From a virus: a stretch of 64,000 bases of DNA. Numbering within the stretch: the stretch's first letter is position 1; each line of letters opens with the position of its first letter. The notes below the pieces were generated by a model. The model did not search any database. It had not been told where the DNA came from and saw nothing but the letters and a program-made list of their open reading frames with translations. The translations under genes and the position numbers were made by a program. Where the stretch lies: IMG/VR virus record IMGVR_UViG_3300002225_000004; one strand, given 5' to 3'. Shown here piece after piece: positions 1 to 63,579 of the stretch.

Positions 1-106
1 CTGGTGTTACGGAGTGACAGACGGCACGTATCGTGTTGATGTGGATAAAAATAATATTATTTTCTCACTGGGTGAGGATATGATTGCAACCATCGCACGG
101 TCATGA
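1..106 (+). CDS. Partial hypothetical protein (3' end)
   Basis: Frame 2 reads WCYGVTDGTYRVDVDKNNIIFSLGEDMIATIARS*. Its stop overlaps the ATG at 103 (ATGA). Confidence 0.6.
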   Translation, partial: WCYGVTDGTYRVDVDKNNIIFSLGEDMIATIARS

Positions 107-435
107 GTTTATTCCCTAAGATGTGCGCTTGCGCATACTGCGGTGCCACTGCTGACAACCTGCATGATGCAGCGGAACACCAGATGGCGTGCCATAAGAA
201 CCCGCAGAACATGGATCACCATGAGTTCTGGCTTCACTACTTTGGAGTCACAGAGTTTGAGCATATCTTCCTGCAAGATAAGTTCAAGCAGTTGATGAGG
301 CATGATGGTGAAGCTACACACCTGATGGTCAACGGCCCTCACTTGATGGTGAAGGTTGAAGATATGGTGTATAAGTTCCACCGTGATAACCCGGAGATGG
401 CATTGTCTTCAGGTGTCGTATATAAATCTCGATAG
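103..435 (+). CDS. Hypothetical protein with possible Zn finger
   Basis: CxCxxC...HxxxCH at the N-terminus; ATGA coupling to the upstream ORF. Confidence 0.65.
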   Translation: MSLFPKMCACAYCGATADNLHDAAEHQMACHKNPQNMDHHEFWLHYFGVTEFEHIFLQDKFKQLMRHDGEATHLMVNGPHLMVKVEDMVYKFHRDNPEMALSSGVVYKSR

Positions 436-438
436 TTG

Positions 439-467
439 TTGACACGATGATAACAAAGTGTTAATAT
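439..467 (+). promoter_or_regulatory. Sigma70-type promoter
   Basis: TTGACA-17 nt-TAATAT upstream of ATG 490. Shares ATAGTTGTTGAC with the promoter at 4748. Confidence 0.75.
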
Positions 468-489
468 CTATCCGTAACGAAAGAAAAAC

Positions 490-777
490 ATGAAAGTGTA
501 TAGAGCATTCACCTATAAGGTGAAAGAAAAAGAAGAGGCGGCTGAGTTTACGCCAGACCACATCGCATTGCGCGATGAGAACAATAGGGAGACGGCAAAG
601 ATTCCTTATGAGGAGTCACCACTTCTTACCCACGCCGGAAAGGCTATGCAAAGGAAGCAAGCCATCACTGAGTTCCTTGCTGAGAAAGGAATCAAGCTGC
701 TTGCTACCCACACATGGATAGATCCGAAGGGCATGGTCCTGTTGTCTAATAACATGAAGACGAGCATCAAAGAATAG
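490..777 (+). CDS. Hypothetical protein
   Basis: ORF directly behind the promoter. Confidence 0.7.
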   Translation: MKVYRAFTYKVKEKEEAAEFTPDHIALRDENNRETAKIPYEESPLLTHAGKAMQRKQAITEFLAEKGIKLLATHTWIDPKGMVLLSNNMKTSIKE

Positions 778-1043
778 TGCATCCGACACGTTACAAACTC
801 AAACCGTTTCCTCTTAAGATAGAGAGAGTCACTAAGTGTAAACCTTTAGTGACTGCCTGTATGCATATCACTGGTGTATTTCACTATCCCGATGGGTCTT
901 CTGATAGAGGACGTATTGAATATACTGATATGATGCCTAAGTATGTAGATGCCCAGGAAAGGGAGCGGTTTGACGTAACGTGGTTCATACCTGACACGAA
1001 TGAGATTCACCATGAAACCGGTGAGTGCGAAGACGAAGTGTGA
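777..1043 (+). CDS. Hypothetical protein
   Basis: GTG start overlaps the upstream TAG. Confidence 0.55.
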   Translation: MHPTRYKLKPFPLKIERVTKCKPLVTACMHITGVFHYPDGSSDRGRIEYTDMMPKYVDAQERERFDVTWFIPDTNEIHHETGECEDEV

Positions 1044-1236
1044 TGTAGTCGTTCCTGTCTATAGGATAGGGACGGCGACATTGCCTTCAGGTCGTATAGT
1101 TCACAACGTCAAGCGCAGGTTGGTATTCAATGAGTATGAATACTACCTTAACAATAAGGAGATTGAAGTGTCCGCTTTCTCCGTCGAAGAGTATATCGAT
1201 GAGACAGGACAAGGAAGAGATAACCAAACAAAATAA
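1012..1236 (+). CDS. Hypothetical protein
   Basis: ORF-track 1000..1236; stop TAA lies within the palindrome. Confidence 0.55.
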   Translation: MKPVSAKTKCDVVVPVYRIGTATLPSGRIVHNVKRRLVFNEYEYYLNNKEIEVSAFSVEEYIDETGQGRDNQTK

Positions 1237-1248
1237 TATTATTTAATC

Positions 1249-1641
1249 ATGAGCCTACCAAAATTCAACAAGAAGAACATCAAGTCCACGAAGGGGAGAC
1301 AGGGGTCTAAGTATGATGTGTATCTTCAGGAGTTCACCCAGCCGGGTGACTCATTGCAATTCGATGAGGAGGATATGTCACGACAGACTGCCTCGCAAAT
1401 CGCCAAGCGTTTCCGCGACTTGGAGGACAAGCCTTTCCATTCCTTCTGGGATGCTAAGGAGAAGAAGGTTACTATCCGCCTCCGCCTCGACTCTGAAATC
1501 GATCAAGATAAGGAGGAGGAGGATGAGCAGAACCCGTTCAATCAGGCACCTGACCCTGAAGAAGAGGCGAGCGATGAAGATGAGCCTTCCCCGTTCGACA
1601 TGCCTTCAACCCAAGAAGGATCAGCCTTTGACCTTGACTGA
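1249..1641 (+). CDS. Hypothetical protein: basic N-terminus, small domain, long acidic tail
   Basis: D/E-rich C-terminal half; starts 5 nt after a palindrome copy. Confidence 0.75.
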   Translation: MSLPKFNKKNIKSTKGRQGSKYDVYLQEFTQPGDSLQFDEEDMSRQTASQIAKRFRDLEDKPFHSFWDAKEKKVTIRLRLDSEIDQDKEEEDEQNPFNQAPDPEEEASDEDEPSPFDMPSTQEGSAFDLD

Positions 1642-1642
1642 T

Positions 1643-1882
1643 ATGCCTGAAGAAAACCAAGCGCAAAAACTTGCGGACAGCTTCCTTGCTGAAGTGTTCC
1701 CTGTTGAAAGCGAGAACAAACATCTTAGGAGTCTCTTGGAAATTGCTTTCGTTGGAGGCATGGCATCCTTCGAGGCTATGTCTTCTAGAATCTATGCAGA
1801 ACATCCTCAAGACATGAGTAAGAAAGTGATCTCGGAATTCACCAAGGATATGCATGACTTGATCAATAAGAACATGGCATGA
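1643..1882 (+). CDS. Hypothetical protein
   Basis: ATG 1643 (MPEENQ) follows the stop at 1641; the upstream part of the ORF-track 1313 frame is a shadow. Confidence 0.65.
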   Translation: MPEENQAQKLADSFLAEVFPVESENKHLRSLLEIAFVGGMASFEAMSSRIYAEHPQDMSKKVISEFTKDMHDLINKNMA

Positions 1883-2127: not shown

Positions 2128-3640
2128 AAAGAAGTATCAGAAGAAGGAACCTGTAACTAGGGTGCCTTTCAAGCTGAGCCATGCGGCTAGCGATGACCAG
2201 TTGGCAATTAAAGATTGCTGGCTCAACGATTTAGATAATATCTTTATCCCGGCAGTAGCAGGGTCAGGTAAGTCAAGCACGCTTGCATTCCTGATGGCGT
2301 GTGCCGCCAATGTGGTCGGTGCATACATCGCATTCAACAAGGACATCGTTACGGAAATGGAACCTAAGTGTCCTCCGGGTGTCACAGTTAAGACCAGACA
2401 TGCCTTCGGGTATGTTGCCTTCGCTAAGAAGGGAATCCGGCTCAAGGTTGAGAAGGATAAGCTCTCGCATGCCCTTGAGAAGAATGGATACGTGGTAAGC
2501 AAGGAGGATGAGCTATCGTATGAACGATGCCAGTCTATCAAGAGGCTCATCGATCAAATGAAGAACAACTTGATTGATGTCCATGACCATGAAGGCATCG
2601 ATCGAATGTGCTACTTCTATGACATCGACATCGATTGTCTGGATGAAGTGAAGGTGAAGCTGCCTAAGATCTTCGAGCTGATCGTAAGCTTAGGCATGGA
2701 AGGGATCATCGACTTCGTTGACATGAAGTGGTTGCCTGTTCACTTGAAGTGGGAGATGAATCGTTTCCCTGTCCTGTTCCTTGATGAGTATCAAGACTCT
2801 TCAAGCTTGGACATGGCGTTTGATAAGATGCTACTTGCTCCGGGTGGTCGTGTGGTAATCGTTGGTGATGCTCGTCAATCCATCTACGGATTTGCTGGTG
2901 CTAACTGTGACTCAATCGAGATCGCAAGTCAGCAATTCCTCTCGTCTGAGTTCGCATTGAACAAGACGTTCCGCTGTTCACCTGAAGTTGTGGCTCATGC
3001 CCAACGTATCGTCCCACATATTGAAGCATGGGAAGGGACTAAGCCGGGACGTGTCGTCCGTATGTTTGAGGAGTTTGAACCTACTAGCATGGACCCTAAT
3101 GCTATGGTCCTTTGCCGAAGGAACGCTCCGCTTGTCCGTCCATGCTTCAAGGCATTGAAGGCTGGAGTGAAGGCGAACATTAAAGGAAGGGACATCGGCG
3201 CTGGATTGATTACGATTATCAACAAGCAGAATGCTGAGACTATCCCAACCATGCTTGATAAGATGGAGGACTTCTTCCATCGGGCAAAGGAACGTGTGAT
3301 GTCTCGGAAAAGAGTAAACCCAATGACGCTTGAGTTGCTGGAAGATCAACAGAGTATCATCGAAGCGTTCGCCATGGAGCCAGACATCCAGACGATCTCT
3401 CAACTGAAGTCGAAGATCAAAGAGATGTTCACTGAAGACAAGACTGGCATGGTGTTCAGTAGTGTTCACCGTAGCAAGGGACTGGAGGCAGACCACGTTG
3501 TCATCCTTGATGCTAAGCGTATCCGCCTTTCCTTCGATAAGATGACAGACGAAGCGAGAACTCAGGAAGCTAACCTTGAGTATGTCGCAATCACCAGAGC
3601 GAAGGGCAACCTTTACCTCGACCTAGCCGAAAGAAAATAA
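2120..3640 (+). CDS. SF1 (UvrD/Rep-like) helicase
   Basis: AGSGKS Walker A, DEYQD, VGDARQSIYGFAG, SVHRSKGLE, YVAITRAK. Confidence 0.92.
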   Translation: MARKKYQKKEPVTRVPFKLSHAASDDQLAIKDCWLNDLDNIFIPAVAGSGKSSTLAFLMACAANVVGAYIAFNKDIVTEMEPKCPPGVTVKTRHAFGYVAFAKKGIRLKVEKDKLSHALEKNGYVVSKEDELSYERCQSIKRLIDQMKNNLIDVHDHEGIDRMCYFYDIDIDCLDEVKVKLPKIFELIVSLGMEGIIDFVDMKWLPVHLKWEMNRFPVLFLDEYQDSSSLDMAFDKMLLAPGGRVVIVGDARQSIYGFAGANCDSIEIASQQFLSSEFALNKTFRCSPEVVAHAQRIVPHIEAWEGTKPGRVVRMFEEFEPTSMDPNAMVLCRRNAPLVRPCFKALKAGVKANIKGRDIGAGLITIINKQNAETIPTMLDKMEDFFHRAKERVMSRKRVNPMTLELLEDQQSIIEAFAMEPDIQTISQLKSKIKEMFTEDKTGMVFSSVHRSKGLEADHVVILDAKRIRLSFDKMTDEARTQEANLEYVAITRAKGNLYLDLAERK

Positions 3641-3651
3641 TATTATTTATC

Positions 3652-4085: not shown

Positions 4086-4490
4086 ATGTATCTGATACTG
4101 AACAAAGAAAGGTTAGCACTGGGTCATGGAGAGCATGGCTGGGTGCTGCTGACAGAGACGGAGAAACTGCGGACCTTCCAAACATGGTTGTCCGCGAACC
4201 AGACGGCCATGAAACTCCAAGCACCGACAGTCGTATCATCGGAGGAGCTACTACTCAGGTTGATCGGCATACTGAGCTTCCTTGGAGAACCACTACATGA
4301 CATGCTTGTGAACCATGGTATGATTGGTGACGCCGCCATGGTAGGCGGTGTCATCGAACACAAGAAACATATTGCTGATCTTACCGAAGCGATGGAATCT
4401 TTGGTAGATGAGAACGACACTCTCCGCAAAGAGGTGGGGAAGCTTAGCCTGATGAGGGGTGAGCTTGAGGCGATAATAAACAATAAATAA
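4086..4490 (+). CDS. Hypothetical protein with C-terminal coiled coil
   Basis: Heptad-like tail; stop lies within the palindrome. Confidence 0.7.
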   Translation: MYLILNKERLALGHGEHGWVLLTETEKLRTFQTWLSANQTAMKLQAPTVVSSEELLLRLIGILSFLGEPLHDMLVNHGMIGDAAMVGGVIEHKKHIADLTEAMESLVDENDTLRKEVGKLSLMRGELEAIINNK

Positions 4491-4647
4491 TATTATTTAT
4501 TGTTAACACCAATGAGATATAATAATGCATTAACGAACGATGAGGATTGATTCTAAGCAGGGGGTTGGCAGGAGGTAACATGAACCTCACCCTTTGCATT
4601 CAAACGTCTGAGCGTGGACCTGTGTTCCAGCAATGACGTATCTAGCG

Positions 4648-4775: not shown

Positions 4776-4857
4776 GTTCTTAACGGTCAGCGGCCAAGGT
4801 ATTATGCAGAAGATATGATACTAAGGTTAAGTTAACCAAAAATAATATTATTGTTCC

Positions 4858-6113: not shown

Positions 6114-6133
6114 TAAATAATATTATTTAACCA

Positions 6134-7092: not shown

Positions 7093-7628
7093 AACTAGAT
7101 CAAGGATTAATCTCCCAGTATCGGGAGATCCATAAGAGGCAACCTAAGTATGGACACGCCGCAACCTATCGCAACTGGATTGAGATGCTGGCAAAGGATA
7201 ACGATGTAAAGACCATACTTGATTATGGATGCGGCAAGGGCAAGCTGTCCGATGACATCGAGAAGCATACAGACATTAAGTGTTGGAAGTATGACCCTGC
7301 CATCGAGGAGTTTAGTGACCTGCCGCCAGGCATGAGTGACATGGTAGTATCTAACGATGTGCTTGAGCATCTGACTGGACTGACTGTCCGACCGGTTCTA
7401 AATGACATCTTCCTTCGTGGAAATAAAGTTATTTTTCTGAACATCTCTTGCCGTCCGGCACATCAGATCCTCCCCGATGGGAAGAATGCACACACCCTGA
7501 TTAAAGATCCGTTTGATTGGAAGACGTTCATCGATGACATTGCTACTCGGTTAGGGTGGGAGATGACTGAAGAGAAGTTCTCTCCTATCAACCGTAACTT
7601 GGTATTAGTTTATACCCGACCTGAATAA
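7089..7628 (+). CDS. Class I SAM-dependent methyltransferase (small-molecule or glycan type)
   Basis: ILDYGCGKG motif I; DMVVSNDVLEHL. Confidence 0.88.
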   Translation: MKLDQGLISQYREIHKRQPKYGHAATYRNWIEMLAKDNDVKTILDYGCGKGKLSDDIEKHTDIKCWKYDPAIEEFSDLPPGMSDMVVSNDVLEHLTGLTVRPVLNDIFLRGNKVIFLNISCRPAHQILPDGKNAHTLIKDPFDWKTFIDDIATRLGWEMTEEKFSPINRNLVLVYTRPE

Positions 7629-8299: not shown

Positions 8300-9674
8300 G
8301 CATCAGATCCTTGCAGTGGAGATGCTGCGTGAGTCCTTCAAGCGTCACAAACGGACGATCCTTAATGCAGGAACAGGGTTTGGTAAGTCGATCACCGCCG
8401 TCTTCATAGGTGTGGAGACGGTGAAGCGGGGAAATAATATTATTTTTCTAGTGCATCGGAAGGAGATCCTTCAACAGTTCTTCAAGACATTCAAATGGTT
8501 TGGGGTTACTCCAAGTTTAATCATACCCGGCAAGAAGCATACGCCTAATCAGCCAGTCTATCTAGGTATGGTTGAGACATATCGGAGGCGGATGAAGCAG
8601 CCAGGATTCATCGAGTCTCTCAATGCCCCTCTTCTTATATGTGATGAGGTGCATTGGGGATCGTATGAGTCAGTAGTCAATTGCTTTCCGGGTAGAGTGA
8701 TAGGCTTGAGCGCAACACCGAAGGCGGCAAGCGGTCAGGACTTGAACAAATACTTTGATGACTGCGTATGTCCTGTGTCTGTGCCTGAGTTAATCAATCA
8801 GGGATACCTCATGCCGGGGATGACCTTCTCTATTGAACATGACTTTTCTAAGCTTAAGTTGAAGGGCAAGGACTTTAATGCTGAGGATCTGTATCAGGAG
8901 TTCAAGTCACCTACCTTGTTTGAGGGATGCCTCGAAGAGTATGAGAAACATTGCAAAGATAAGAAGGCTATCGTCTACTCAGTGAATGTTCAGCACTCAA
9001 TTGAAACGTGCGAGATGTTTACTGAGGCAGGCTATCAGTGCTGGCATGTTGACGCTACTTCCACCCATCGTAACGAAATCTTTGAGGCGTTTGCCGAATC
9101 AAAGAAGGGCATACTATTCAACGTAGGTATTGCCACTACTGGATACGATGAGCCTAGTGTTGAGTGCATCATTGAGAACTTCGCTACCGCTCAACTGACC
9201 AAGCATCATCAGGTGGTAGGCAGAGGAGCGAGACCATGTGAAGAGATTGATAAGAAACAGTTCCACATCATTGACATGGGTAGGAACTACATGAGACATG
9301 GATTGTATGGTGAGGATATAGATTGGATTGAGATCTTCAACAACCCTAAGCTAGCCAAGTCGAAGAAGGAAGAGAAGGAAGCAAGCAATACAGAGTGTCG
9401 ATTGTGCGGCGCATTGATTAAGATAACAATGAAGGCGTGTCCCTACTGTCTGACTCCGGTGACAGAGAAGCAGGTAGAGGATGCCATCATGGAGAAGGGC
9501 GACACAAAACAGATAAAAGAATACCGACTACAGAACATGCCTCCTGATCTGCGAGGTATGAAACCGGGACATATGTCATACCAACAACTGAAGGAGTATG
9601 CTAAGCATATGAACTACAAGCCGGGATGGATCGGAATGCAGATGGGATTAAGAAACAGATACAATAGAAAATGA
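8286..9674 (+). CDS. SF2 (DExH) helicase with C-terminal Zn finger
   Basis: LREHQ, GTGFGKS, DEVH, LSATP, QVVGRGAR, CxxC...CPYC. Confidence 0.92.
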   Translation: MKLREHQILAVEMLRESFKRHKRTILNAGTGFGKSITAVFIGVETVKRGNNIIFLVHRKEILQQFFKTFKWFGVTPSLIIPGKKHTPNQPVYLGMVETYRRRMKQPGFIESLNAPLLICDEVHWGSYESVVNCFPGRVIGLSATPKAASGQDLNKYFDDCVCPVSVPELINQGYLMPGMTFSIEHDFSKLKLKGKDFNAEDLYQEFKSPTLFEGCLEEYEKHCKDKKAIVYSVNVQHSIETCEMFTEAGYQCWHVDATSTHRNEIFEAFAESKKGILFNVGIATTGYDEPSVECIIENFATAQLTKHHQVVGRGARPCEEIDKKQFHIIDMGRNYMRHGLYGEDIDWIEIFNNPKLAKSKKEEKEASNTECRLCGALIKITMKACPYCLTPVTEKQVEDAIMEKGDTKQIKEYRLQNMPPDLRGMKPGHMSYQQLKEYAKHMNYKPGWIGMQMGLRNRYNRK

Positions 9675-10312: not shown

Positions 10313-10563
10313 AAACTTACTGGACTATGGAGGGGGGTGGGCGCATCAAGATCAAGGAGATGACTACCTCTCACATTGAGAACACGTTGAAGATGCTTGA
10401 GCGCCAGCAAGAAAACATAGATGAATCACTAGCTGCTTCTTCATTGCGAGGAGAGATGGCACAATACTATGCCGAGAGAGACGCGCTTCATAATGAACGT
10501 CTTGGATGTGGGCATTCATGCTACCGTCCATTACTAAACGAACTAGAAAGAAGGAAAAAATAA
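10309..10563 (+). CDS. Hypothetical protein
   Basis: ATG 10309 overlaps the upstream TGA; stop lies within the palindrome. Confidence 0.65.
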   Translation: MKTYWTMEGGGRIKIKEMTTSHIENTLKMLERQQENIDESLAASSLRGEMAQYYAERDALHNERLGCGHSCYRPLLNELERRKK

Positions 10564-10601
10564 TATTATTTACTTGATTTAATCCATGAAAAGATTAAGC
10601 T

Positions 10602-11149: not shown

Positions 11150-11690
11150 ATATGAAAATCAATTCTTCCTCGCCCCAATCAAGGGATGGACATACCATGA
11201 AAACGGAAAACCAATCAAAGGATGGGACTCAACACACAAACTCTACTCAACAGGTGGTCTCATCTGGAGGGAGGCGGTGCTTAGCTTTGCGAAGACTCTG
11301 CCCAATGTTGAGTGCCGAGAGACAACGCTGCTATATGTATGTGATTCTTATGATTGTCCTGTTGGCCCGATGCGTGACCTACCTCATGACATGCTGATCC
11401 GAAATAATATTATTTTTCCCAAGGAGTTAAGGGATAACGGATTCGATACATGGGATGAAGGAATGGCGGCGCTGGGAAAAATAGAAAGATACTACAAGAC
11501 AATCAAGACATGCAAGATCAAGAAGAGCCTGAAGAAACTATTGATACACCTATGGCATCCAGTGATGATGTCGGAGGAAGCGGAGAGGAAACGGAGTATG
11601 AGCGATACGTTCGAGAAAGAAGCGAGGCAAAGAGAATCAAAGGACTCCCTAAGAAACGCACTCCTCTTAGACGATCAGGAAAACCCCTAA
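11136..11690 (+). CDS. Hypothetical protein
   Basis: Contains an in-frame palindrome (RNNIIFP); 3' end overlaps the next gene. Confidence 0.6.
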   Translation: MTKVEYENQFFLAPIKGWTYHENGKPIKGWDSTHKLYSTGGLIWREAVLSFAKTLPNVECRETTLLYVCDSYDCPVGPMRDLPHDMLIRNNIIFPKELRDNGFDTWDEGMAALGKIERYYKTIKTCKIKKSLKKLLIHLWHPVMMSEEAERKRSMSDTFEKEARQRESKDSLRNALLLDDQENP

Positions 11691-12216: not shown

Positions 12217-12674
12217 GCATCTCCCGCGACCGAAAGCATGAGGCTCCAGAAATACTGCAAATTAGTCACCTTTTTGCTTGCAAGAACAAGAGGATTATGC
12301 TAAAGTCTAATACAGATGAGCCGCTAGTGGCTCTGTCTAAGTTAAACTTTGACGAGAAAATAATATTATTGTTTGCCGGATATGACCATGACCACAACGC
12401 TTCATTCAAATGTGAAAACGCTATCGTCCACTGTAACCAGTGGGTAACATTCTCCCTCTTCTTCAAGCGACTAGAGTTCCCAATGGACTTTATCATAATG
12501 GATCGAGTAGACCAGTGGGATCTGAAACGTAAGAAGAAAGACATCGGAAGAATCCGAACACCAATCATCGCAAGGATGAACAAGAAAAGACTACAAGGAA
12601 CCAACATAATCTTTACCATTATGGGTGATGATGTTGGGCTTGAGGAACAGATGGATGAAGTCATCACAATTTAA
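12213..12674 (+). CDS. Hypothetical protein
   Basis: GTGA overlap; in-frame palindrome (EKIILLF). Confidence 0.6.
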   Translation: MSISRDRKHEAPEILQISHLFACKNKRIMLKSNTDEPLVALSKLNFDEKIILLFAGYDHDHNASFKCENAIVHCNQWVTFSLFFKRLEFPMDFIIMDRVDQWDLKRKKKDIGRIRTPIIARMNKKRLQGTNIIFTIMGDDVGLEEQMDEVITI

Positions 12675-13919: not shown

Positions 13920-14008
13920 TAAATAATATTATTTATTGCAACTCTCCGCAAGTATGCGGCACTGGCCCGGTGGTAGGGCAACCAAGACAAACAAGCACAA
14001 AGATAAAC

Positions 14009-15433
14009 ATGAAAATTGAAAACGTATTGACACAAGACGAGAACGGTGAGATCGGTGAACTTTGCAAGAAGGATTACTTGAAGGCTATCGTCAAGGAGAT
14101 GGAAGTTAAAGCATACCAAGACGAGCGCGTCGGTATCGTTGACCCTATCAAGATCGTGTCAACTATCTTCACTGCTGCCGCCAAGGGAGCAGAGCAAGCT
14201 GAACAGCTTACTGATGACTATCAGGAAGTTATCGACCGCATCACTGAGGATGTGGAGTTCACGACCAAGACTCTTGAGGAGCGCAAGACTGCTGCTGCTG
14301 ATGAGAAGGCTGCTGCCAAGAAGCAGAAGGAAGAAGAGAAAGCGAAGAAGGAAAAGGACGCGGCTGAACTTGCCGAGCGCCAGACTGGATTCGTTGCCGC
14401 CGTGTCTGAAGGTGCCGACAAGGCTGCCGAACAGTTCATGGGTGAGCTTGAAGCACTGAAGGAAAACCTTCCTGAGTCGGTTGCTATTGCCCGTGACGGT
14501 GATGGCTACGGCATCAACCTGAAGGAAGGTGCGTCTGACGAGGACTTGGGTAGTGCTATCGGTTACTTCATCGGGACCAGCGAGAACTCTCAGTTCTTGG
14601 CTAACCAGATCCAATGGTTCATTGGTGACTTGGCTGGTGCTGCTGTCGCAAAGGGCCTGTATAAGACTGCGCTCGAAGCATCGAAGTGCATCTCTACATT
14701 CCTTGCCGAGAAGGGAACCCGCATGGCTCCCGGTGCTATCGATACTTATCGTCGCATGTCTGACCGGACTGAGGTTTCCCTTCGTAACCCGAAGGCTGAT
14801 CCTACTGCTTACCTTGAACTCTCCCGTATGAAGCGTCCTAAGAAGGGCGACAAGGAGACCAAGGAAGCTTTCGCTGGTCGTCAGGAAGAATTCGAGAAGG
14901 ACATCAAGGAAGTTCAACAGAAGCTGTCCGATGGTGAGATCCTCCAGCGCAAGGAGATCCTCCCCGCTGCTCAGGAAATCAAGTATAAGCACGGCATCGA
15001 GGAGCGTCCTGATCCTAATGAAGTCACCGTCTCTGCTACCGACATGTTGAAGATCGTGGTCTTCGGGCAGATCTTCCTTGAAGAGGCGGTCGGAAACTAC
15101 ACCGATGAAGAAGGCGTGGTCCAAGAGGGCAAGCTTTGCTTCATTGATCCGAAGAATCCCACCGACAAGGTGTGGGTTACCGCCACTGAGATGGAAGCTA
15201 AGGTGGAAGAGGCGAAGAGCAACCTCATGAACATCTTCCTTAAGGGTAAGAAGTTCTCCGTTGAGGAAGTTCTTCAAGGATTCCGCAAGGAAGAGAAGGA
15301 TGTTCCTGTTGGCACTGATGGTGACGGCAAGGCCATCACTGAGAAGCGCATGGTCTCTGTGCCTGTGCTGATCCCAGCCTTCTTCCCATTCGAGTCCGCT
15401 TCAACGGACGAAACCGAAAATGCAACCGACTAA
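14009..15433 (+). CDS. Highly expressed-style hypothetical protein (helical, coiled coil)
   Basis: Strong AAG/GAG/ATC/TTC codon bias; A-rich leader; own terminator. Confidence 0.85.
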   Translation: MKIENVLTQDENGEIGELCKKDYLKAIVKEMEVKAYQDERVGIVDPIKIVSTIFTAAAKGAEQAEQLTDDYQEVIDRITEDVEFTTKTLEERKTAAADEKAAAKKQKEEEKAKKEKDAAELAERQTGFVAAVSEGADKAAEQFMGELEALKENLPESVAIARDGDGYGINLKEGASDEDLGSAIGYFIGTSENSQFLANQIQWFIGDLAGAAVAKGLYKTALEASKCISTFLAEKGTRMAPGAIDTYRRMSDRTEVSLRNPKADPTAYLELSRMKRPKKGDKETKEAFAGRQEEFEKDIKEVQQKLSDGEILQRKEILPAAQEIKYKHGIEERPDPNEVTVSATDMLKIVVFGQIFLEEAVGNYTDEEGVVQEGKLCFIDPKNPTDKVWVTATEMEAKVEEAKSNLMNIFLKGKKFSVEEVLQGFRKEEKDVPVGTDGDGKAITEKRMVSVPVLIPAFFPFESASTDETENATD

Positions 15434-15459
15434 ATAATATTATTTAAGTCTAGGTAATG

Positions 15460-15499
15460 AGGCGGCACTTGATCTAATCCAGATTGGGTGCCGCCTTTT
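15460..15499 (+). terminator. Intrinsic terminator
   Basis: AGGCGGCAC...GTGCCGCCT stem followed by TTT. Confidence 0.7.
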
Positions 15500-15507
15500 C
15501 TATAGAT

Positions 15508-16029
15508 ATGAAGGAGATAAGAACATGCTGCAAGTGTGGATGCTCGTATGACTACGATTCCAAGGCTAAGAAGGGATCATCATCAAGATGCTGTGGGAAA
15601 TGCACCAAGCAAAACTCTAGCGCAAGGACCAGGAGATACATGATAGACGCAGCCGGAGGTTCATGTCGTGCCTGCGGTTATGATGCAGATCCTTTCGCTA
15701 TCATGTTTGTTAGCCCTGTAGTAGAGCTAGTCAAGAAGAGAGCCCCAACAAAAGGAAGGGAGCGAATCAGATGGGCGGCGACACAGATTCCACTGTGCGT
15801 TAGATGCATTAGGGAACTGAAGAACGAGTTCATTAAGATGAAAGTATATGACGCCAAGGCTAGACCAGTCAAGGTGTCGTTCTTTACTGATGATGTAACC
15901 GAGGTGAGCCACCTCAAACCAACTGAACTCCTGTCAGCGAATCAGGAGATTGAGATTGTTCATGAGCGCGAGGAAACTTCAAAAGAAATCAGAACGATTG
16001 GTTCTGACAAGGTTAAAGAAATTAACTAA
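15508..16029 (+). CDS. Zn-binding, degenerate HNH-like protein
   Basis: CCKC...CCGKC; CRACGY...AIMFVSP...LCVRC, lacking the usual His residues. Confidence 0.55.
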   Translation: MKEIRTCCKCGCSYDYDSKAKKGSSSRCCGKCTKQNSSARTRRYMIDAAGGSCRACGYDADPFAIMFVSPVVELVKKRAPTKGRERIRWAATQIPLCVRCIRELKNEFIKMKVYDAKARPVKVSFFTDDVTEVSHLKPTELLSANQEIEIVHEREETSKEIRTIGSDKVKEIN

Positions 16030-16183: not shown

Positions 16184-17090
16184 AGATTTGGTAATTTACC
16201 ACAACAAAGATAACGATGGCTACTGCTCAGGAACAATTGCTTACATGGCGCTGATCAATCAAGGTCGGCACGTTGACTTGCTCGGATGGAACTACGGGGA
16301 TGACGTTCCTAAGTTAGATCCAACTGCATACGACCATGTGTATATGGTTGACATCACCTTCCCGCTTAGTAATCTGCGCGAATTGAATAGTAGATTCGGA
16401 AAGCGACTTACGATCATCGATCATCATAAGTCATTCATTGATGCTGTGATGGAAGATGAATTCGATGAACTTGAATGCGAGCTGATTCTTAATGATGATA
16501 GCGCAGCGTGTGAACTGACATGGCATTACTTCAATACCAAACCTGTCCCTCTTGCCGTGTATGCTATCGCAGTGATGGACATCTATCGGAAAGATCCTGA
16601 TCCTATTGGGCCGTTGAGAACATTCAATCACTACAAGTTAGTAGGTGCGGCAATGTATGCAAGACTTGGGGACATCGATAACGATGAGTCTCTCGGTCTG
16701 TGGGTGGAGCGTATAAACTACTATAACGCGGAGTGTGCTATTCGTGACTTGGAGCTTGGGGAGATCCTCCAGCGCGGTCAGAAAGAGAAAGGAAAGCTTC
16801 TGTCCGCTTCGTCAGTAGTGGTTACTATCGCAGGTATCCCATTCAATGTAATGAACTCTTATGGGAATAAGTTTATCACAATCAAGAACGGGTTCCCTCT
16901 TCTATTCTTCATGCATGACATGCACGGTGGGATCATTTGTTCGTTGATTCAGAATGAATACATGGGGACCGAGTATTGTATCTTGAATATCGCAAAGGGA
17001 TTCGGAGGAGGCGGGCATCCTAATGCTTGCGGTTTCTCATTGCCTGTTGATGAGTTTATGATGTTCCTTAAAAATAATATTATTTCATGA
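16167..17090 (+). CDS. DHH/DHHA1 family phosphoesterase
   Basis: YHNKDNDG, MVD, IDHH, GGGGHPNACGF. Confidence 0.9.
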   Translation: MTMTNKDLVIYHNKDNDGYCSGTIAYMALINQGRHVDLLGWNYGDDVPKLDPTAYDHVYMVDITFPLSNLRELNSRFGKRLTIIDHHKSFIDAVMEDEFDELECELILNDDSAACELTWHYFNTKPVPLAVYAIAVMDIYRKDPDPIGPLRTFNHYKLVGAAMYARLGDIDNDESLGLWVERINYYNAECAIRDLELGEILQRGQKEKGKLLSASSVVVTIAGIPFNVMNSYGNKFITIKNGFPLLFFMHDMHGGIICSLIQNEYMGTEYCILNIAKGFGGGGHPNACGFSLPVDEFMMFLKNNIIS

Positions 17091-18983: not shown

Positions 18984-19699
18984 AGAGACCGCTCAGAGTA
19001 TTGGTAGCATGTGAGAGTTCCGGTGTAGTCCGAGATGCTTTCAATGCTCTGGGTCATGTCGCTACATCATGTGATCTGTTACCATGTGAGGGCAGGCATC
19101 ATCAAGGATCTGTCTTTGAGATAATAAATCAGAGATGGGACTTGATGATCTGCCACCCACCTTGCACATACCTTTCTTCCAGTGGAATGCATTGGACTAT
19201 TAATGGATACCGATGTCCGCTACTAACCTGTGAAGCAGTGCAGTTTGCTAAGCTTCTATGGAGCGCAGACATACCAAGAATAGCGATGGAAAATCCTGTT
19301 GGCGTATTGTCTACTGAGATACAGGAACCAGATCAATACATCCAACCGTATAGGTTTGGACACGATGCCAGCAAGGGAACCGGGTTATGGCTTAAGAATC
19401 TATCTAGACTGAAGAATACCAAGTATATCAAACCAAGGATTGTTAACGGCAGGAAAAGGTGGGGCAATCAAACTGATTCAGGGCAGAATGCATTACCACC
19501 TAGAGACGGTAGAGAGAAAGAGAGAAGTAAAACCTATGATGGCATAGCTCAAGCAATGGCTATACAGTGGGGTGGGGATACAGGGTGGAGGGACGCGGCG
19601 CATGTCGATGATCCCGAATCAGATCATTGCTTACTATTTCGAGGAGAATTAGAATACAGGACGTTTCATAATGTCCTGATGGCGAGACCAAAAAAATAA
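18980..19699 (+). CDS. DNA cytosine-C5 methyltransferase-like protein
   Basis: VLVACESSG, ICHPPCTY (PC motif), MENP. Confidence 0.75.
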   Translation: MKRPLRVLVACESSGVVRDAFNALGHVATSCDLLPCEGRHHQGSVFEIINQRWDLMICHPPCTYLSSSGMHWTINGYRCPLLTCEAVQFAKLLWSADIPRIAMENPVGVLSTEIQEPDQYIQPYRFGHDASKGTGLWLKNLSRLKNTKYIKPRIVNGRKRWGNQTDSGQNALPPRDGREKERSKTYDGIAQAMAIQWGGDTGWRDAAHVDDPESDHCLLFRGELEYRTFHNVLMARPKK

Positions 19700-19709
19700 T
19701 ATTATTGTT

Positions 19710-39412: not shown

Positions 39413-39424
39413 AATTAAATAATA

Positions 39425-40962: not shown

Positions 40963-40988
40963 AAAAATAATATTATTTAAAGTGGTTG

Positions 40989-43274: not shown

Positions 43275-43303
43275 ATACTACTATATCTGCTAGTATTTGT
43301 CAA
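43275..43303 (-). promoter_or_regulatory. Sigma70-type promoter for the capsid gene
   Basis: TTGACA-17 nt-TAGTAT with AT-rich upstream element. Confidence 0.75.
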
Positions 43304-43327: not shown

Positions 43328-43359
43328 TAAAAAACCCCGACCCAATCAAGGGCCGGGGT
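43328..43359 (-). terminator. Intrinsic terminator after the scaffold gene
   Basis: ACCCCGGCCC-ttgatt-GGGTCGGGGT followed by TTTTT. Confidence 0.8.
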
Positions 43360-43375
43360 AAATAATATTATTTAT

Positions 43376-44922: not shown

Positions 44923-44930
44923 AAATAATA

Positions 44931-47303: not shown

Positions 47304-47316
47304 GGTATAAATAATA

Positions 47317-47868
47317 TTATTTTTTAATCCAGCAATTATCTGGTCTCATCTGACTTTGAATGGGATCATCGTCCGGTAGATATTCTTTGTTCGTAGCCAG
47401 TAGCAATGGAAGGCTGCATCCACACACGCCACAAAACTGGGTCTTCATCTTTGGGTTGAATACCAGTTGCTTTTTAGTTAATCTCCTTGCATCATTCAGC
47501 ATCATCGTAGCCTTTCCGAGTCCACCGCACCCAGTGCAGAAGGTGCTAGTATCTCTTAATGGACAATTCTGACATATTTCTTGCCGTTCGTCAAGCTCTT
47601 TCTGGTCTATTGTTTTCTGACCTGCAAATCTAAACAATGCAAGTGATGCATGATATGCTTCTGAAAGCTTTGGCTTGCTGGGCTTAGTCTTCTTGAGCGG
47701 AACGAACTTAAGCTGATTGACGATGGCTTGCTTTGTGCTTTCCATCTCTGCCTTCTCGCCTTGATTAGCTAAGAATGTTACAACCTTGATGGCTATCTTA
47801 TCTACGGATGTTCCTGTGATCTTAATCTTCCGACCATTCCGTATCATTATGTATTCGTATGCATCCAT
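47317..47868 (-). CDS. Cys-rich hypothetical protein
   Basis: CQNCP..CTGCGG..CGVCGC..CW; start moved to MDAYEY. Confidence 0.65.
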   Translation of the reverse strand: MDAYEYIMIRNGRKIKITGTSVDKIAIKVVTFLANQGEKAEMESTKQAIVNQLKFVPLKKTKPSKPKLSEAYHASLALFRFAGQKTIDQKELDERQEICQNCPLRDTSTFCTGCGGLGKATMMLNDARRLTKKQLVFNPKMKTQFCGVCGCSLPLLLATNKEYLPDDDPIQSQMRPDNCWIKK

Positions 47869-49969: not shown

Positions 49970-49983
49970 TAAATAATATTATT

Positions 49984-52778: not shown

Positions 52779-52809
52779 TGTTTCTATTGGTGGGAAAATA
52801 ATATTATTT

Positions 52810-54238: not shown

Positions 54239-55377
54239 TAGTAGATGTTGATTATTTCTCCAGCGCAAGGGAATCCTGCGAGAACCTCATAAGGTCCGAT
54301 TGGTGAACATGGATCGACTGAATCCATTTCAGCAATTATGCCAAGACCGGCAGAATATATCTTCCACTTCTCTTCCACTAGATCATAATAAACCCTCTTG
54401 AATGTTGGGCCGGATGGAAGCGGCGTTGACGACGAAGAGACTGAAGATGACTCTGAGGAAGATTCCGATGAGGATGGTGACGAGCTAGACCCAGATGGAG
54501 GAATAGAGGAGGAGCTAGATACAGATGAGGACTCCGAAGAAGACTCCGAAGAAGAAGAACTTACAGAAGACGAAGGCTCTATTTCGCTATTAATGTATGC
54601 GCAGTCACCCTCTTGATATACATTATGATCCTCATATTCAAGCGGAACCAGAATTGGAAGAGGATTAAATTCACCCCCCAACTCTTCACATGGGATCTCC
54701 ATAAGAACCAATCCCTCACAGCAATTTGAAGATGAGGATGATTGAGAAGGGGAAGAGGATGAAGAGTGACTTGTTGAATCCGAATTAGGACTTGAGCTAG
54801 ATGATGTGCTTGAGCTTGGGTATGAAGAAGAGGACGACGAAGAAGAGGACGACGAAACGTGGCTAGATGAAGACGACGACGAGGATGATGATTCTGAAGA
54901 CGAAGAAGACGAAGACGACGATGAAGAGATTCCACTAGATGAAGACGACGAAGATGAAGAGGACGACGACGAATAGATTCCGCTAGATGAAGAGGAAGAT
55001 GAAGAGGAAGATGAAGAGCATGGCTGAGAATACAATACATCCATCGCTTGCTTCTTAGCCCTCAGATTACATGCGAGAATCTTAAGCACCCTTAGTGAAT
55101 TCAGGTGATCTTGAGTAGGCTTTCCAATACGGTAATACTTAGGGCAGCAATCCGGCACCTCCCACAGCGGGCAATCCGATGAGGAGGATGAGGAAGAAGA
55201 TGAAGCGGATGAGAACGGGTAATCACAATCACTAAACTGCAATGCGAATTCATTAATCGCATCGATCATTTCGCAATTGCTTTCCTCGATAGCGTTTATC
55301 TCCTCAATCAACGCCTTGCCATAGCGATTGCTGGAAATAAAAATAATATTATTTGATTCTTCGCAGTCTTTAGTCAT
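54238..55377 (-). CDS. Ser-rich, Cys-containing structural protein
   Basis: Several long poly-Ser tracts; duplicated SESSSESSSVSSSS. Confidence 0.7.
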   Translation of the reverse strand: MTKDCEESNNIIFISSNRYGKALIEEINAIEESNCEMIDAINEFALQFSDCDYPFSSASSSSSSSSSDCPLWEVPDCCPKYYRIGKPTQDHLNSLRVLKILACNLRAKKQAMDVLYSQPCSSSSSSSSSSSSGIYSSSSSSSSSSSSSGISSSSSSSSSSSESSSSSSSSSSHVSSSSSSSSSSSYPSSSTSSSSSPNSDSTSHSSSSSPSQSSSSSNCCEGLVLMEIPCEELGGEFNPLPILVPLEYEDHNVYQEGDCAYINSEIEPSSSVSSSSSESSSESSSVSSSSSIPPSGSSSSPSSSESSSESSSVSSSSTPLPSGPTFKRVYYDLVEEKWKIYSAGLGIIAEMDSVDPCSPIGPYEVLAGFPCAGEIINIY

Positions 55378-57194: not shown

Positions 57195-57231
57195 GCGATT
57201 AAGTTGTTTAGTGAAAAAATAATATTATTTA

Positions 57232-60873: not shown

Positions 60874-60898
60874 TAAATAATATTATTGTTACCGTTCC

Positions 60899-61357: not shown

Positions 61358-61407
61358 AAAATAATATTATTGTTTGGGTGTAGCGGGTTCACCTAGAATG
61401 TAAAGAC

Positions 61408-61489: not shown

Positions 61490-62059
61490 ATGGATCTGGA
61501 AAGGATTTCTAATATAGTGTCTGGATGGACACCCCACGACAAGCGCGTTTACGGTTCGGATGGCGGGAGGGCGATGCTGAGTGAATACAAGTTCATTAAA
61601 GGGATGCGGAATTGGGAAATGGATGAAGATAGATGGATCTACGATCCCTTGAAGGTTATACTTCAAGCGCCCAAACAACCAATACTAATTCAACTAGAAG
61701 AAGGCTACATAGTATTACCCGCATGGGTTAAGAACGTCATCCAATATGTAGGTAAGCTACAATCAGATAGAGTAACACGTTGGAGATTCCTAAAGAACCC
61801 ACATAAAAATAATATTATTTTCTACCTCGAAACAGGCCAAAAGAAAGAAGCGGTAATTGACCGAGAAATACTATGCCAGATAAACCTAAACGGAGATATA
61901 GAAAAGATCATGGAGTCTTTACGATCGCAGTGGAGGAACGCATCCGATACTATTACCTACTCGGATATGCGCCGGAAAACATCTCAAAGTGTGTATCAAC
62001 TGAGTATCAACTGTTCGAAGTTGCAGAAATTAACATTGAATCGGTTCGAAAGTTTATAA
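61490..62059 (+). CDS. Hypothetical protein
   Basis: In-frame palindrome KNNIIFY; 3' end overlaps the next gene by 187 nt. Confidence 0.6.
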   Translation: MDLERISNIVSGWTPHDKRVYGSDGGRAMLSEYKFIKGMRNWEMDEDRWIYDPLKVILQAPKQPILIQLEEGYIVLPAWVKNVIQYVGKLQSDRVTRWRFLKNPHKNNIIFYLETGQKKEAVIDREILCQINLNGDIEKIMESLRSQWRNASDTITYSDMRRKTSQSVYQLSINCSKLQKLTLNRFESL

Positions 62060-62520
62060 TGAAGAATCGAGCTGAGTTATTAGAAGCCCGCGCCGAACGA
62101 GCTTTAGCTATACGGGAAGCTAATAACATAAAGATGCAAGAGAACTTCATGACCGCTCAGGCTACTGAGATCAAGGTCGTCGAAGTCTACTCAAAGAAGA
62201 TCATCGAACTAGTAAACGAACTAGACGGGCTAGATGTCACCGAACAAGATGACCAAGGCTTCTATGTAAACATGGGTCCATACGCTACAATCGTAATGGG
62301 AATCAACAAGACTCATGAAATGATGTCTAAGCTTAGTGGAACCGAGTCCGCTAGGGCGGTGATGGAACACATGCGTAAAGCCTACGCTAAAGAAGTTGCC
62401 GCTAAGGCTTCGGGGATGCACGATGCCGCCCAGAAGATGGAAACAATTTTCCACGATGATGTGGAAACAATGAAAGAATATGGTCCGTGCGGATTGCCGG
62501 ATCTCAAAAAGATAAACTAA
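61873..62520 (+). CDS. HTH plus coiled-coil protein (possible terminase small subunit)
   Basis: YYLLGYAPENISKCV HTH-like segment then helices; function is inference. Confidence 0.5.
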   Translation: MPDKPKRRYRKDHGVFTIAVEERIRYYYLLGYAPENISKCVSTEYQLFEVAEINIESVRKFIMKNRAELLEARAERALAIREANNIKMQENFMTAQATEIKVVEVYSKKIIELVNELDGLDVTEQDDQGFYVNMGPYATIVMGINKTHEMMSKLSGTESARAVMEHMRKAYAKEVAAKASGMHDAAQKMETIFHDDVETMKEYGPCGLPDLKKIN

Positions 62521-62804
62521 TGAGCAAGCAAGATAAAACACTCCACAACTGTGATGCAGACGGAGCAAGGAAAAACGTAAGTGATCTTAAGATCGTAGGG
62601 AATGGAGATATGTTCCAGCTATTATGCAAGGCTTCATCTAAGTCTGAAGGCTGGATGAAATCAACTAAAGCGATGCAGCTTCCTAATGGTTGTTTAGTCC
62701 AAGTAACCACACAGCAAGGTGAAAACGTAGCGGAAGCACTGGTATATGTTCATGATGCTATGATCATTGATGATGTAAATGGAGGAAAGAAGCTGACTCA
62801 ATGA
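62520..62804 (+). CDS. Conserved-looking phage hypothetical protein
   Basis: GNGDMFQLLCKASSKSEGWMKSTKAM...VQVTTQQ; TAATG overlap. Confidence 0.7.
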   Translation: MSKQDKTLHNCDADGARKNVSDLKIVGNGDMFQLLCKASSKSEGWMKSTKAMQLPNGCLVQVTTQQGENVAEALVYVHDAMIIDDVNGGKKLTQ

Positions 62805-63013
62805 AAGCAATTGACCACCGCAAAAAGATGAGGGGACCGCATAACCACCCGAACACCCAAAGGCAAGCCGATGGAATGCCAAAGACAACCGCAAGGGAAA
62901 CGCCTAGCGAGAAGAAGGAACGAATGGCATCACTCTCAAAGGAGCTAAATACATTCGACCCGCTAACCATAGCCACCGCCCTTAAGATGGGTGAAGCAAA
63001 CCCTACGATATGA
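62801..63013 (+). CDS. Hypothetical protein
   Basis: ATGA overlap. Confidence 0.6.
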   Translation: MKAIDHRKKMRGPHNHPNTQRQADGMPKTTARETPSEKKERMASLSKELNTFDPLTIATALKMGEANPTI

Positions 63014-63090
63014 GCCCGGAACTAAAGGAGGTTCTAACCCTAGCCATCTTCGCCACTATCATAATAACCACAATTATATGTAACCGATGA
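63010..63090 (+). CDS. 26-aa hydrophobic peptide
   Basis: MSPELKEVLTLAIFATIIITTIICNR; ATGA overlaps on both ends. Confidence 0.5.
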   Translation: MSPELKEVLTLAIFATIIITTIICNR

Positions 63091-63179
63091 TAGCAATGCA
63101 TATCTTCCATCAACTCCTAATCGCAATCCCAGTCGGCTTAGGATTCTTCTTCCTGATCTACTTCCTAACCATAAAGTGA
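63087..63179 (+). CDS. 30-aa hydrophobic peptide
   Basis: MIAMHIFHQLLIAIPVGLGFFFLIYFLTIK; ATGA and GTGA overlaps. Confidence 0.5.
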   Translation: MIAMHIFHQLLIAIPVGLGFFFLIYFLTIK

Positions 63180-63430
63180 AGACTAGAACCAACCACGGCG
63201 CAGAGATCGACATGTTCGTAAAGCGCATCCAATATGTAAAGGCTGGCACAACCGCAGAAGCGAAGCGATCCCCTAAGTCCAGAGGTATACGCATACCCAC
63301 ACCTACCGCTACACGGACTGCATCAAACCCATACACTTACCCTTGTAACCACTTCTGGGTCTGGAACAGCCACGAAAAGGTATGGAAATGCAAGTGCGGT
63401 CAGATAATAAAAAAGCTACCGTATATGTAG
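63176..63430 (+). CDS. Small basic protein with C-terminal Zn-finger-like motif
   Basis: CNHFW...WKCKCG; GTGA overlap. Confidence 0.5.
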   Translation: MKTRTNHGAEIDMFVKRIQYVKAGTTAEAKRSPKSRGIRIPTPTATRTASNPYTYPCNHFWVWNSHEKVWKCKCGQIIKKLPYM

Positions 63431-63449
63431 CGTAAATACATAGCGACAC

Positions 63450-63490
63450 AAAAACACCCCCTTCCGTGACCAATGGAAGGGGGTGCTTTT
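63450..63490. terminator. Bidirectional intrinsic terminator
   Basis: AAAAA-CACCCCCTTCC-9 nt-GGAAGGGGGTG-CTTTT. Confidence 0.85.
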
Positions 63491-63532
63491 AGCAAGACAA
63501 CACTAGATAACCGTTTCCAGAGTGACGCAAGC

Positions 63533-63560
63533 AGTGTAACATATCTGGAGGTAATGTCAA
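63533..63560 (-). promoter_or_regulatory. Leftward (antisense) promoter
   Basis: TTGACA-16 nt-TACACT; palindrome abuts the -35. Confidence 0.55.
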
Positions 63561-63579
63561 CAATAATATTATTTTAATT

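Follow-up and report, generated by a model that had tools for sequence, protein, structure and literature searches.

Arrays of operators scattered over a replicon have been described for a handful of temperate phages and for one family of plasmids. Phage phiC31 reportedly carries many intergenic copies of a conserved 17-bp inverted repeat (the CIRs), which are bound by the phage repressor, and Cluster K mycobacteriophages are said to have a conserved 13-bp motif, the SAS, a few bases 5′ of some start codons. Cluster A mycobacteriophages (L5, Bxb1) carry 20–30 dispersed, near-identical stoperators of 13–14 bp on both arms; from one related phage to another the consensus varies in step with the specificity of the phage protein (PMC6550527; PMC9283540). 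KorB has a palindromic operator array and acts at kilobase distance by sliding (PMC11790492, PMC13768133). In cyanobacteria, the hyper-abundant palindrome HIP1 (GCGATCGC) is selected both inside and between open reading frames (ORFs) and is suspected of a role in chromosome structure, with no RNA, peptide or gene-level role found (PMC5861425). Here we describe a palindrome made only of A and T that recurs at limited intervals across the virus record IMGVR_UViG_3300002225_000004 of IMG/VR, and its counterparts in related phages. The window, as we call the 64,000-nt stretch that was analysed, is a rotated portion of a circular 70,890-bp metagenomic contig.

The 12-bp core of the palindrome, AATAATATTATT, is present in 36 exact copies in the window, the number given in the first-pass annotation of this DNA, compared to 0.00 copies in 100 dinucleotide-preserving shuffles. 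Six further exact copies lie in the 6.9 kb beyond the window, giving 42 per 70.9-kb circular genome, or an average of one per ~1.7 kb. All 36 window copies are identical over 12 bp and 29 of them over the full 14-mer AAATAATATTATTT, the remaining seven having one altered flanking base. A scan of the window allowing one mismatch to the 12-mer added only two sites, at 7422 and 28049, in which both half-sites are intact and the centre is AG or GA instead of TA; degenerate copies are otherwise nearly nil. Outside the full site, the sub-words AATATT, AATAAT and TAATAT showed neither clear enrichment nor clear avoidance. The genome is not an assembly artefact, since a 100% identical sequence is present in a second dataset.

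The copies span both divergent arms of the genome, as first noted: the + arm, which runs from ~61.5 kb through the window end/start to 22.2 kb, and the − arm, from 61.4 down to 22.3 kb. Gaps between copies in the window averaged 1815 bp with a coefficient of variation (CV) of 0.46, compared to 0.98 under uniform placement (0 of 100,000 simulations so low). The two largest gaps are 3658 and 2924 bp, in agreement with the first-pass annotation; the simulated mean for the longest gap was 7522 bp (P = 7e-5), and a single gap exceeds 3 kb where 6.75 were expected. Close pairs are rare too, with a minimum gap of 214 bp (P = 0.014) and four gaps <500 bp against 8.2 expected. Gene junctions were controlled for in two ways. 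First, placing copies at a random subset of the 74 junctions and at random ORF positions gave a CV of 1.05. Second, holding the junction copies fixed and randomising the 10 ORF copies gave a CV of 0.89 and a longest gap of 7916 bp, compared to the real 3658 bp (P = 1.4e-4); in neither control was any of 50,000 simulations as low in CV as the real array. Junction copies alone would leave gaps of 12220, 4443, 4421, 4262, 3658 and 3363 bp, all of which, save the 3658-bp gap, contain ORF copies. The even spacing thus survives the junction control because copies inside ORFs occupy the gaps between junction copies, and the apparent maximum spacing proposed at first is borne out by the simulations.

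Twenty-six of the window copies lie between genes and 10 within ORFs. At junctions the motif nearly fills the spacer, its TAA is often the stop codon of the upstream gene, and at many junctions the start codon of the next gene follows 1–6 nt past the motif. Every same-strand junction with a copy has a spacer of at least 8 nt (21 of 21), whereas 39 of the 50 motif-less junctions overlap or are ≤5 nt apart. Most adjacent genes in the window overlap by 1 or 4 nt. Reading frames of the ORF copies, derived from motif and ORF coordinates, were the same in nine cases of 10, AAT AAT ATT ATT (N-N-I-I), including all four copies in the 10-kb gene; the other copy reads I-I-L. The copies and the two variant sites, with no strand assigned, are listed below (lengths of proteins in amino acids, aa).

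50..61, intergenic, 41 nt 5′ of ATG 103
1232..1243, junction; its TAA stops ORF 1000-1236; 5 nt 5′ of ATG 1249
3636..3647, junction; stop of SF1 helicase gene 2120-3640; 4 nt 5′ of ATG 3652
4486..4497, gives the stop of ORF 4086-4490
4841..4852, in non-coding 4491-5063, 66 nt downstream of sigma-70-like promoter 4748-4775
6116..6127, junction, 6 nt 5′ of ATG 6134
7421..7434, variant site from the one-mismatch scan, half-sites intact, centre AG
8433..8444, within SF2 helicase ORF 8286-9674, N-N-I-I; fills the 4443-bp junction gap
10559..10570, junction; gives the stop of ORF 10270-10563
11403..11414, within ORF 11127-11690 (gene call uncertain), N-N-I-I
12359..12370, within ORF 12213-12674, I-I-L
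13922..13933, upstream of the 487-aa gene; position occupied in all six compared genomes
15433..15444, overlaps the stop codon that ends the 487-aa gene; 5′ of the 181-aa Cys-rich gene
17073..17084, final codons (N-N-I-I) of DHH gene 16167-17090; 2 nt 5′ of ATG 17087
19695..19706, junction; stop of 18980-19699; 3 nt 5′ of ATG 19710 (winged-helix initiator-like gene)
21770..21781, just past ORF 21562-21765, close to the + arm end
24497..24508, within the 3348-aa ORF (22310-32356, − strand), N-N-I-I
26324..26335, within the 3348-aa ORF, N-N-I-I
28048..28061, variant site within the 3348-aa ORF, half-sites intact, centre GA
28736..28747, within the 3348-aa ORF, N-N-I-I
31211..31222, within the 3348-aa ORF, N-N-I-I
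33990..34001, fills junction 34001-35026 / 32353-33987
35467..35478, within ORF 35029-36081, N-N-I-I
36494..36505, fills junction 36501-38276 / 36078-36491
39418..39429, junction before gene 38276-39412; kept in 8 of 9 related loci, absent only in G001
40966..40977, before gene 40675-40962; kept in every relative having that gene
43147..43158, leader of the 696-aa structural gene (41030-43120), 26 nt 5′ of ATG; kept in all relatives
43361..43372, between the stop of 43376-44599 and the intrinsic terminator
44924..44935, fills junction 44931-47303 / 44608-44922
47310..47321, before 790-aa gene 44931-47303; kept in 4 of 6 related loci
49972..49983, 2 nt before terminase-like gene 47870-49969; kept in all relatives
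52797..52808, junction before gene 52179-52778
55342..55353, codons 9-12 (N-N-I-I) of ORF 54238-55377; fills the 4421-bp junction gap
57218..57229, junction before gene 56826-57194
60876..60887, 2 nt 5′ of the ATG of 59671-60873
61360..61371, − arm leader, between promoter candidate 61435-61408 and ATG 61357
61808..61819, + arm leader, downstream of promoter candidate 61456-61483; 53 nt 5′ of ATG 61873
63562..63573, 6 nt 5′ of ATG 63580

The same design was found in related phages with a switched sequence. To delimit the family we used homologues of two proteins, the terminase-like one and the giant 3348-aa one, on contigs of ~65–72 kb from marine and freshwater metagenomes. Roughly 100 contigs of the family turned up, ~20 of them ≥60 kb; we compared pieces of seven relatives, mostly of 12–30 kb, and one further complete genome, G001 (65,261 bp). 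IMG/VR contained only one relative, no close or cultured relatives were found among INPHARED phages, and neither relatives nor prophage copies were found among 185,579 GTDB species genomes. The first-pass annotation had proposed looking in related phages for the same or a different evenly spaced palindrome, and every relative examined indeed has an over-represented palindrome of its own, 14–18 bp long, in which half-sites of the form TT-xx-TT surround a central dinucleotide. Three half-site classes cover ten genomes. AAATAA-TA-TTATTT is shared by the window, L021 and G001, whose terminase-like proteins are 70% (L021) and 44% (G001) identical to that of the window. AATAAA-nn-TTTATT belongs to L001/L005 (64% terminase-like identity), L002, L003 and L006, with CG, CC or GG centres in L003/L006. 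AATTAA-nn-TTAATT is found with a TA centre in L004 and L007, and in L008 the site is AGAATTAA-CA/TG-TTAATTCT. Between classes only positions 4–5 from the centre differ, and both half-sites change together every time. The central dinucleotide is free in several lineages (CG, CC, GG, CA, TG) and its orientation ignores the direction of transcription, with eight CA and seven TG on the coding strand in L008 and a mixture in L006. It had been claimed that a site with no C or G could not be masked by C/G modification, which holds for the lineage of the window and fails for relatives with CG, CC, GG or CA centres.

Even spacing is conserved along with the palindrome. Site density across the relatives is 0.44–0.82 per kb, the mean spacing 1.2–2.3 kb, and few gaps exceed 3 kb. 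G001 has 40 sites with a CV of 0.57 (P = 4e-5), and its ORF copies likewise fill junction gaps (P = 4e-5). Regular spacing was individually significant in seven of eight partial relatives, with a Fisher combined P of 1.3e-12. Copies are also held in frame in the relatives' giant genes, where they read I-N-I-N or I-N-V-N. Despite the sequence switch, positions are kept immediately 5′ of the terminase-like gene, 32–54 nt ahead of the 696-aa structural gene, and upstream of the genes for the 95-aa, 378-aa and 487-aa proteins.

These observations bear on three alternative explanations. Identical copies would be expected after a recent selfish or mutational spread of a sequence that has no function, such as a tiny mobile insertion or a product of biased gene conversion. 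This is scarcely credible given the even spacing, the gap-filling ORF copies in one frame and the positions kept across sequence switches down to 44% protein identity; target duplications and carried sequence are also missing. The copies could instead be cleavage or nick sites of a phage nuclease, used for site-assisted headful cutting at the first site once the head is nearly full, or as T5-like programmed interruptions. All-or-none exactness such as that in the window is typical of nucleases, the assemblies close into circles as permuted genomes would, a site always stands directly before the terminase-like gene, and the maximum gap, ~3–4% of genome length, may be of the order of headful tolerance. 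A symmetric site, however, would mean double-strand cuts at 42 places, one-mismatch variants are tolerated in the relatives, no active nuclease could be tied to the site, and we know of no precedent for multi-site headful cutting, so that we regard cleavage as improbable.

The third explanation is a host protein or a HIP-like function in nucleoid structure, uptake or methylation that differs with the host. HIP1 shows that a palindrome may be abundant inside and between ORFs of cyanobacteria without a gene-level function (PMC5861425), and MazG, Cpn10, ThyX, Kyano_Gp96 and Pam3_Gp34-like genes hint at a cyanophage-like gene content. The array resembles HIP1 in its strong over-representation and in copies kept inside and between ORFs. 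HIP1, which is itself absent from the window, is by contrast an 8-bp, G+C-rich, cellular sequence tied to methyltransferases, with a periodicity of 10–90 kb rather than a 1–3-kb coverage rule, and the 14–18-bp sites of these phages far exceed HIP1 or methylase sites in length. One motif is common to a marine and a freshwater phage at 44% terminase-like identity while a relative at 64% has another, sub-words are neither enriched nor avoided outside the motif, and the sole DNA methyltransferase-like gene is of the C5 type, which cannot act on a site without C. A host-determined function is thus very improbable.

The palindrome is probably a protein-binding site at the level of DNA, and we tentatively favour its being the recognition site of a phage-encoded, lineage-specific homodimeric protein, for which the copies would form a chromosome-wide docking grid. 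From the patterns above we infer binding by a protein, its dimeric state, its phage origin and the outcome of binding. A phage-encoded homodimer on duplex DNA would account for the exact symmetry of the site, the co-evolving half-sites, the unread and unoriented centre, the lineage specificity and the marginal hairpin energy (−1.1 to −2.7 kcal/mol for the palindrome as DNA). Each monomer would read one A/T half-site, TT-xx-TT, leaving the central 2 bp unread. The free, unoriented dinucleotide implies a strand-symmetric reader of double-stranded DNA, and the coordinated change of half-sites a drifting dimer specificity, which a host factor common to all these phages would not give. Co-changing half-sites, a free centre and conserved spacing likewise fit the dimeric protein at limited intervals that the first-pass annotation had suggested, although the searches described below did not find the binder.

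On balance, the sites appear to be selected for genome coverage. Selection would hold some site within ~1.5 kb of every base pair, and the bound protein would act over a limited range (~1.5 kb on each side) by blocking, sliding or spreading. Such a reach is indicated because sites lie less than ~3 kb apart with few redundant copies, because copies in ORFs cost four codons and because the pattern is conserved in every genome examined. Short intergenic stretches at uncoupled junctions would be cheap places for the motif, which there often doubles as a stop codon; where no spacer is available it would be written into an ORF in the tolerated N-N-I-I frame, and redundant nearby copies would be lost.

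Non-coding regions are scarce in the window and contain sigma-70-type promoters and one strong intrinsic terminator. The best-conserved arrangement lies 5′ of the 696-aa gene:

43275..43303, − strand, sigma-70-type promoter (TTGACA, 17 nt, TAGTAT) of the 696-aa structural gene, conserved in five relatives
43334..43359, − strand, strong intrinsic terminator with a 10-bp stem (8 G-C pairs) followed by a T run, between two palindrome copies

In six of six genomes the order is terminator, TTGACA-N17-TAGnnT promoter, a conserved leader of ~115 nt, palindrome and ATG, the conserved promoter standing ~130 nt upstream of the palindrome. The palindrome was itself considered as a promoter and rejected, being symmetric, with most copies ending 1–6 nt before an ATG and a separate conserved sigma-70-type promoter upstream. 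The leader (43160-43275, − strand) contains the blocks GCATAaTCAGTTCAG, TCGTCGCGGAG and GAATGCCATAGAG, conserved in L001–L003, as well as internal complementary stretches, and judged by its sequence it may be a structured regulatory RNA; Rfam gave no match for it, nor did scanning the whole window for Rfam families and tRNAs give any.

A palindrome is found 30–330 nt downstream of the promoter in four of the five best promoter candidates, and each arm appears to be a single operon of 30–40 kb. For these two reasons, the likeliest read-out of binding would be global control of transcription of the two divergent ~30–40-kb operons, through a roadblock or a sliding or spreading silencer; we regard a transcriptional read-out as possible rather than probable. 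The transcription roadblock listed among the original suggestions gains some support from these promoter-proximal sites and from the copy in the conserved leader of the 696-aa gene.

The same regions are relevant to the alternative of an RNA-level element, in which the A/U-rich, self-complementary sequence on the transcripts of both arms would be a landing pad for Shine-Dalgarno-independent initiation or a hairpin for an antiterminator or processing factor; in the hairpin version, the factor would need renewal every few kb along very long operons. In line with this, no Shine-Dalgarno sequences precede the genes of the window, the motif stands 1–6 nt 5′ of many start codons and solely at translationally uncoupled junctions, copies ahead of highly conserved structural genes have stayed in place, each arm seems to be one operon, and in the relatives the palindrome in the 696-aa leader sits within a longer G+C-clamped inverted repeat. 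The ten ORF copies, however, have no consistent in-frame start downstream, and cleavage or termination there would ruin a 10-kb message. The stems are exact and not compensatory inside a genome, the central dinucleotide is randomly oriented relative to the transcript, and hairpin stability is marginal: the palindrome lacks the stable stem followed by a U/T run of an intrinsic terminator or stable hairpin, unlike the true terminator at 43334-43359 with its G+C-rich stem. A translation pad, moreover, needs neither symmetry nor lineage-specific exactness. We consider an RNA-level function distinctly unlikely.

Gene content and spacing bring up a further alternative, that of a replication or recombination signal. 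The − arm contains the structural genes, the terminase-like gene and the 3348-aa polyvalent protein with its ART domain. The + arm contains replication and recombination genes, whose products include SF1 and SF2 helicases, an SSB-like protein, a RecE-like exonuclease, RuvC, a DHH (RecJ-like) protein, MazG and Cpn10 homologues and a winged-helix initiator-like protein. With such a set, the palindromes might mark, in a manner specific to each lineage, where initiation takes place on both strands, be it lagging-strand priming, replication restart or recombination-dependent replication induced by nicks or breaks. A mean spacing of 1.2–2.3 kb with few gaps >3 kb would be on the scale of Okazaki fragments, a palindrome would serve both strands, and a conserved HNH-fold protein is present. 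That protein, on the other hand, is without the catalytic histidines, neither complete genome has a recognised primase or DNA polymerase, and host DnaG to our knowledge requires no such site. A replication signal also does not predict the preference for leaders and for places shortly downstream of promoters, and the origin seems to lie elsewhere, in a cluster of iterons. Taken together, a role in replication is unlikely. The cluster consists of ~20 tightly packed AGTGTTCA repeats at L009:4290-4620, outside the window, in a 1-kb gene-free region adjoining G-rich tracts; G001 has its own 22-nt repeat, in six copies, in L011. By their sequence and packing they are probably iterons of the origin, or else a second array of protein-binding sites separate from the palindrome, and the palindrome was rejected as an origin iteron on account of them.

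How the docking grid that we favour relates to described arrays can be considered system by system. Like stoperators, the palindromes are many, near-identical and dispersed (42 per 70.9 kb; 40 in G001), with a consensus that varies between relatives, and stoperators too lie mostly outside promoters, many of them in short intergenic spacers. Stoperators differ in being asymmetric, oriented with transcription and bound by the monomeric immunity repressor of temperate phages, whereas the palindromes are perfect, unoriented, evenly spaced and also inside ORFs, and no lysogeny genes were found in either complete genome. phiC31 is likewise temperate, and we are not aware that its CIRs have been reported to be evenly spaced or to lie in frame within ORFs. 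The SAS are asymmetric, include the ribosome-binding site, do not occur in ORFs and are not evenly spaced. With the KorB OB sites of RK2 and with ParB-parS the array has in common a palindrome of the dimer type (14–18 bp, free centre), dispersed copies and a replicon of 60–70 kb, and KorB-like sliding would naturally limit the reach of each site and so the distance between sites. RK2 has 12 OB sites; the phage array is ~3–4 times more numerous, is A/T-only and is carried by a phage, not a plasmid. Pfam overviews of both complete genomes revealed no ParBc or ParA family match, no ParB N-terminal CTPase domain and no KorA-like partner, although divergent versions are possible. The array cannot be placed in the ParB/KorB family, for which a CTPase domain or a confirmed DNA-binding domain would be needed.

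Two proteins are weak candidates for the binder:

13970..15433, + strand, 487-aa protein found only in this family, with a weak structural likeness to ParB/Spo0J/KorB DNA-binding domains, a coiled coil and the palindrome in its leader
15484..16029, + strand, 181-aa Cys-rich protein with two CxxC pairs and an HNH-like fold, present in all relatives

The family of the 487-aa protein comprises only 89 clusters among 1.84 billion representatives. Its long coiled coil includes an 80-residue helix, and the palindrome is always present in the leader of its gene. Residues 185–340 of the predicted structure resemble the DNA-binding domains of Spo0J (Z 6.3), ParB bound to parS (Z 6.1) and KorB bound to its operator (Z 5.5), values in a range common for helical domains, so the likeness to ParB/Spo0J/KorB is a weak one. 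Foldseek against the PDB gave nothing significant for this model and only weak HNH rows for that of the 181-aa protein. Fold searches with the 487-aa protein gave no polymerase or primase match, the size of the model making such searches weak. In the 181-aa protein the catalytic histidines of the HNH-like fold are replaced, and as modelled it may be a nuclease that lost its activity and was retained for DNA binding. Sequence searches with the candidates against Pfam, PHROG, NCBIfam and the PDB returned no repressor, ParB, primase, polymerase, RNA polymerase or sigma factor. Among 75 proteins (55 from G001, 20 from the − arm of the window) there was one Xre-type helix-turn-helix (HTH) match, not assigned to a gene. 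The 696-aa protein had shown an apparent covariation signal that was rejected as an artefact of truncated loci.

Several points weigh against the docking grid and its transcriptional read-out. First, on the protein side, no Pfam-level HTH repressor was found in the window, the ParB/KorB-like match of the 487-aa protein has no support in Pfam, NCBIfam or PDB sequence searches, and the co-varying gene that had been suggested as a check gave no signal, since none of the 12 usable orthologous families has residues common to the window and G001 yet excluded from relatives with other motifs. Second, searches of both complete genomes found no gene for an integrase, a partition protein or a recombinase, which together with the lack of a relative among the 185,579 species genomes makes these phages look lytic and removes the usual reason for a genome-wide repressor. 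Third, roadblock models alone demand neither even spacing nor sites within a 10-kb ORF. Lastly, the strong link to uncoupled junctions (21/21 against 39/50) also suits an RNA-level role in gene expression. A bolder version, to which we give limited credence, is that a clamp or spreading protein loads at the lineage-specific palindromes and coats the whole genome, as a chromosome "addressing" system without lysogeny. The spacing rule would then record a protein reach of ~1.5 kb, and the coat would mark lytic phage DNA as self, protecting it, organising its packaging or switching its transcription as one unit. From lineage to lineage the address itself would evolve, with all 40-odd sites changing in concert.

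Other features of these genomes were observed alongside the array. GTAC is absent from the 64-kb window (~246 expected) and occurs six times in G001 (L017–L020; ~251 expected), and GGCC (0.28x) and CGATCG (0.23x) are depleted in the window, which by composition looks like strong restriction-site avoidance. The methyltransferase-like gene (18980-19699, + strand) encodes a small C5-cytosine-type protein with PPC and ENP motifs (PHROG 757). It is 62% identical between the window and G001, compared to 26–54% for other proteins of the pair, and has no counterpart in the syntenic region of four further relatives, a pattern that suggests recent exchange or strong constraint. Its occurrence in only the two genomes with the same motif had made it a candidate partner of the palindrome; it was rejected as a C5-cytosine type facing an A/T-only site. 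In the early arm of a close relative, a Pfam match points to a Tad2-like (anti-Thoeris) gene (L021:418-792, − strand). The sigma-70 −35/−10 promoters, the lack of Shine-Dalgarno sequences, the A-rich stretches 5′ of the genes and the MazG, Cpn10, ThyX, Kyano_Gp96 and Pam3_Gp34-like genes are hints of a cyanobacterial or similar host.

In the literature searched, the motif strings turned up in no paper on phages, a phrase search gave nothing relevant on evenly distributed phage palindromes, and we found no prior description of even spacing, in-frame ORF insertion and coordinated switching across an apparently lytic family. The array may be a variant of the dispersed operator arrays, with a real chance that it is something further removed. 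In practice, the motif is a lineage marker with which metagenomic contigs of this phage family can be sorted. For the biology of the family, a coverage rule, with sites at most ~3 kb apart, is held even at the cost of four fixed codons in essential genes and persists throughout an entire uncultured family of phages in which the sequence of the site switches, which gives a measurable length scale for a DNA transaction. If the reach reflects sliding or spreading, long-range control of the ParB/KorB kind would extend to lytic phages.

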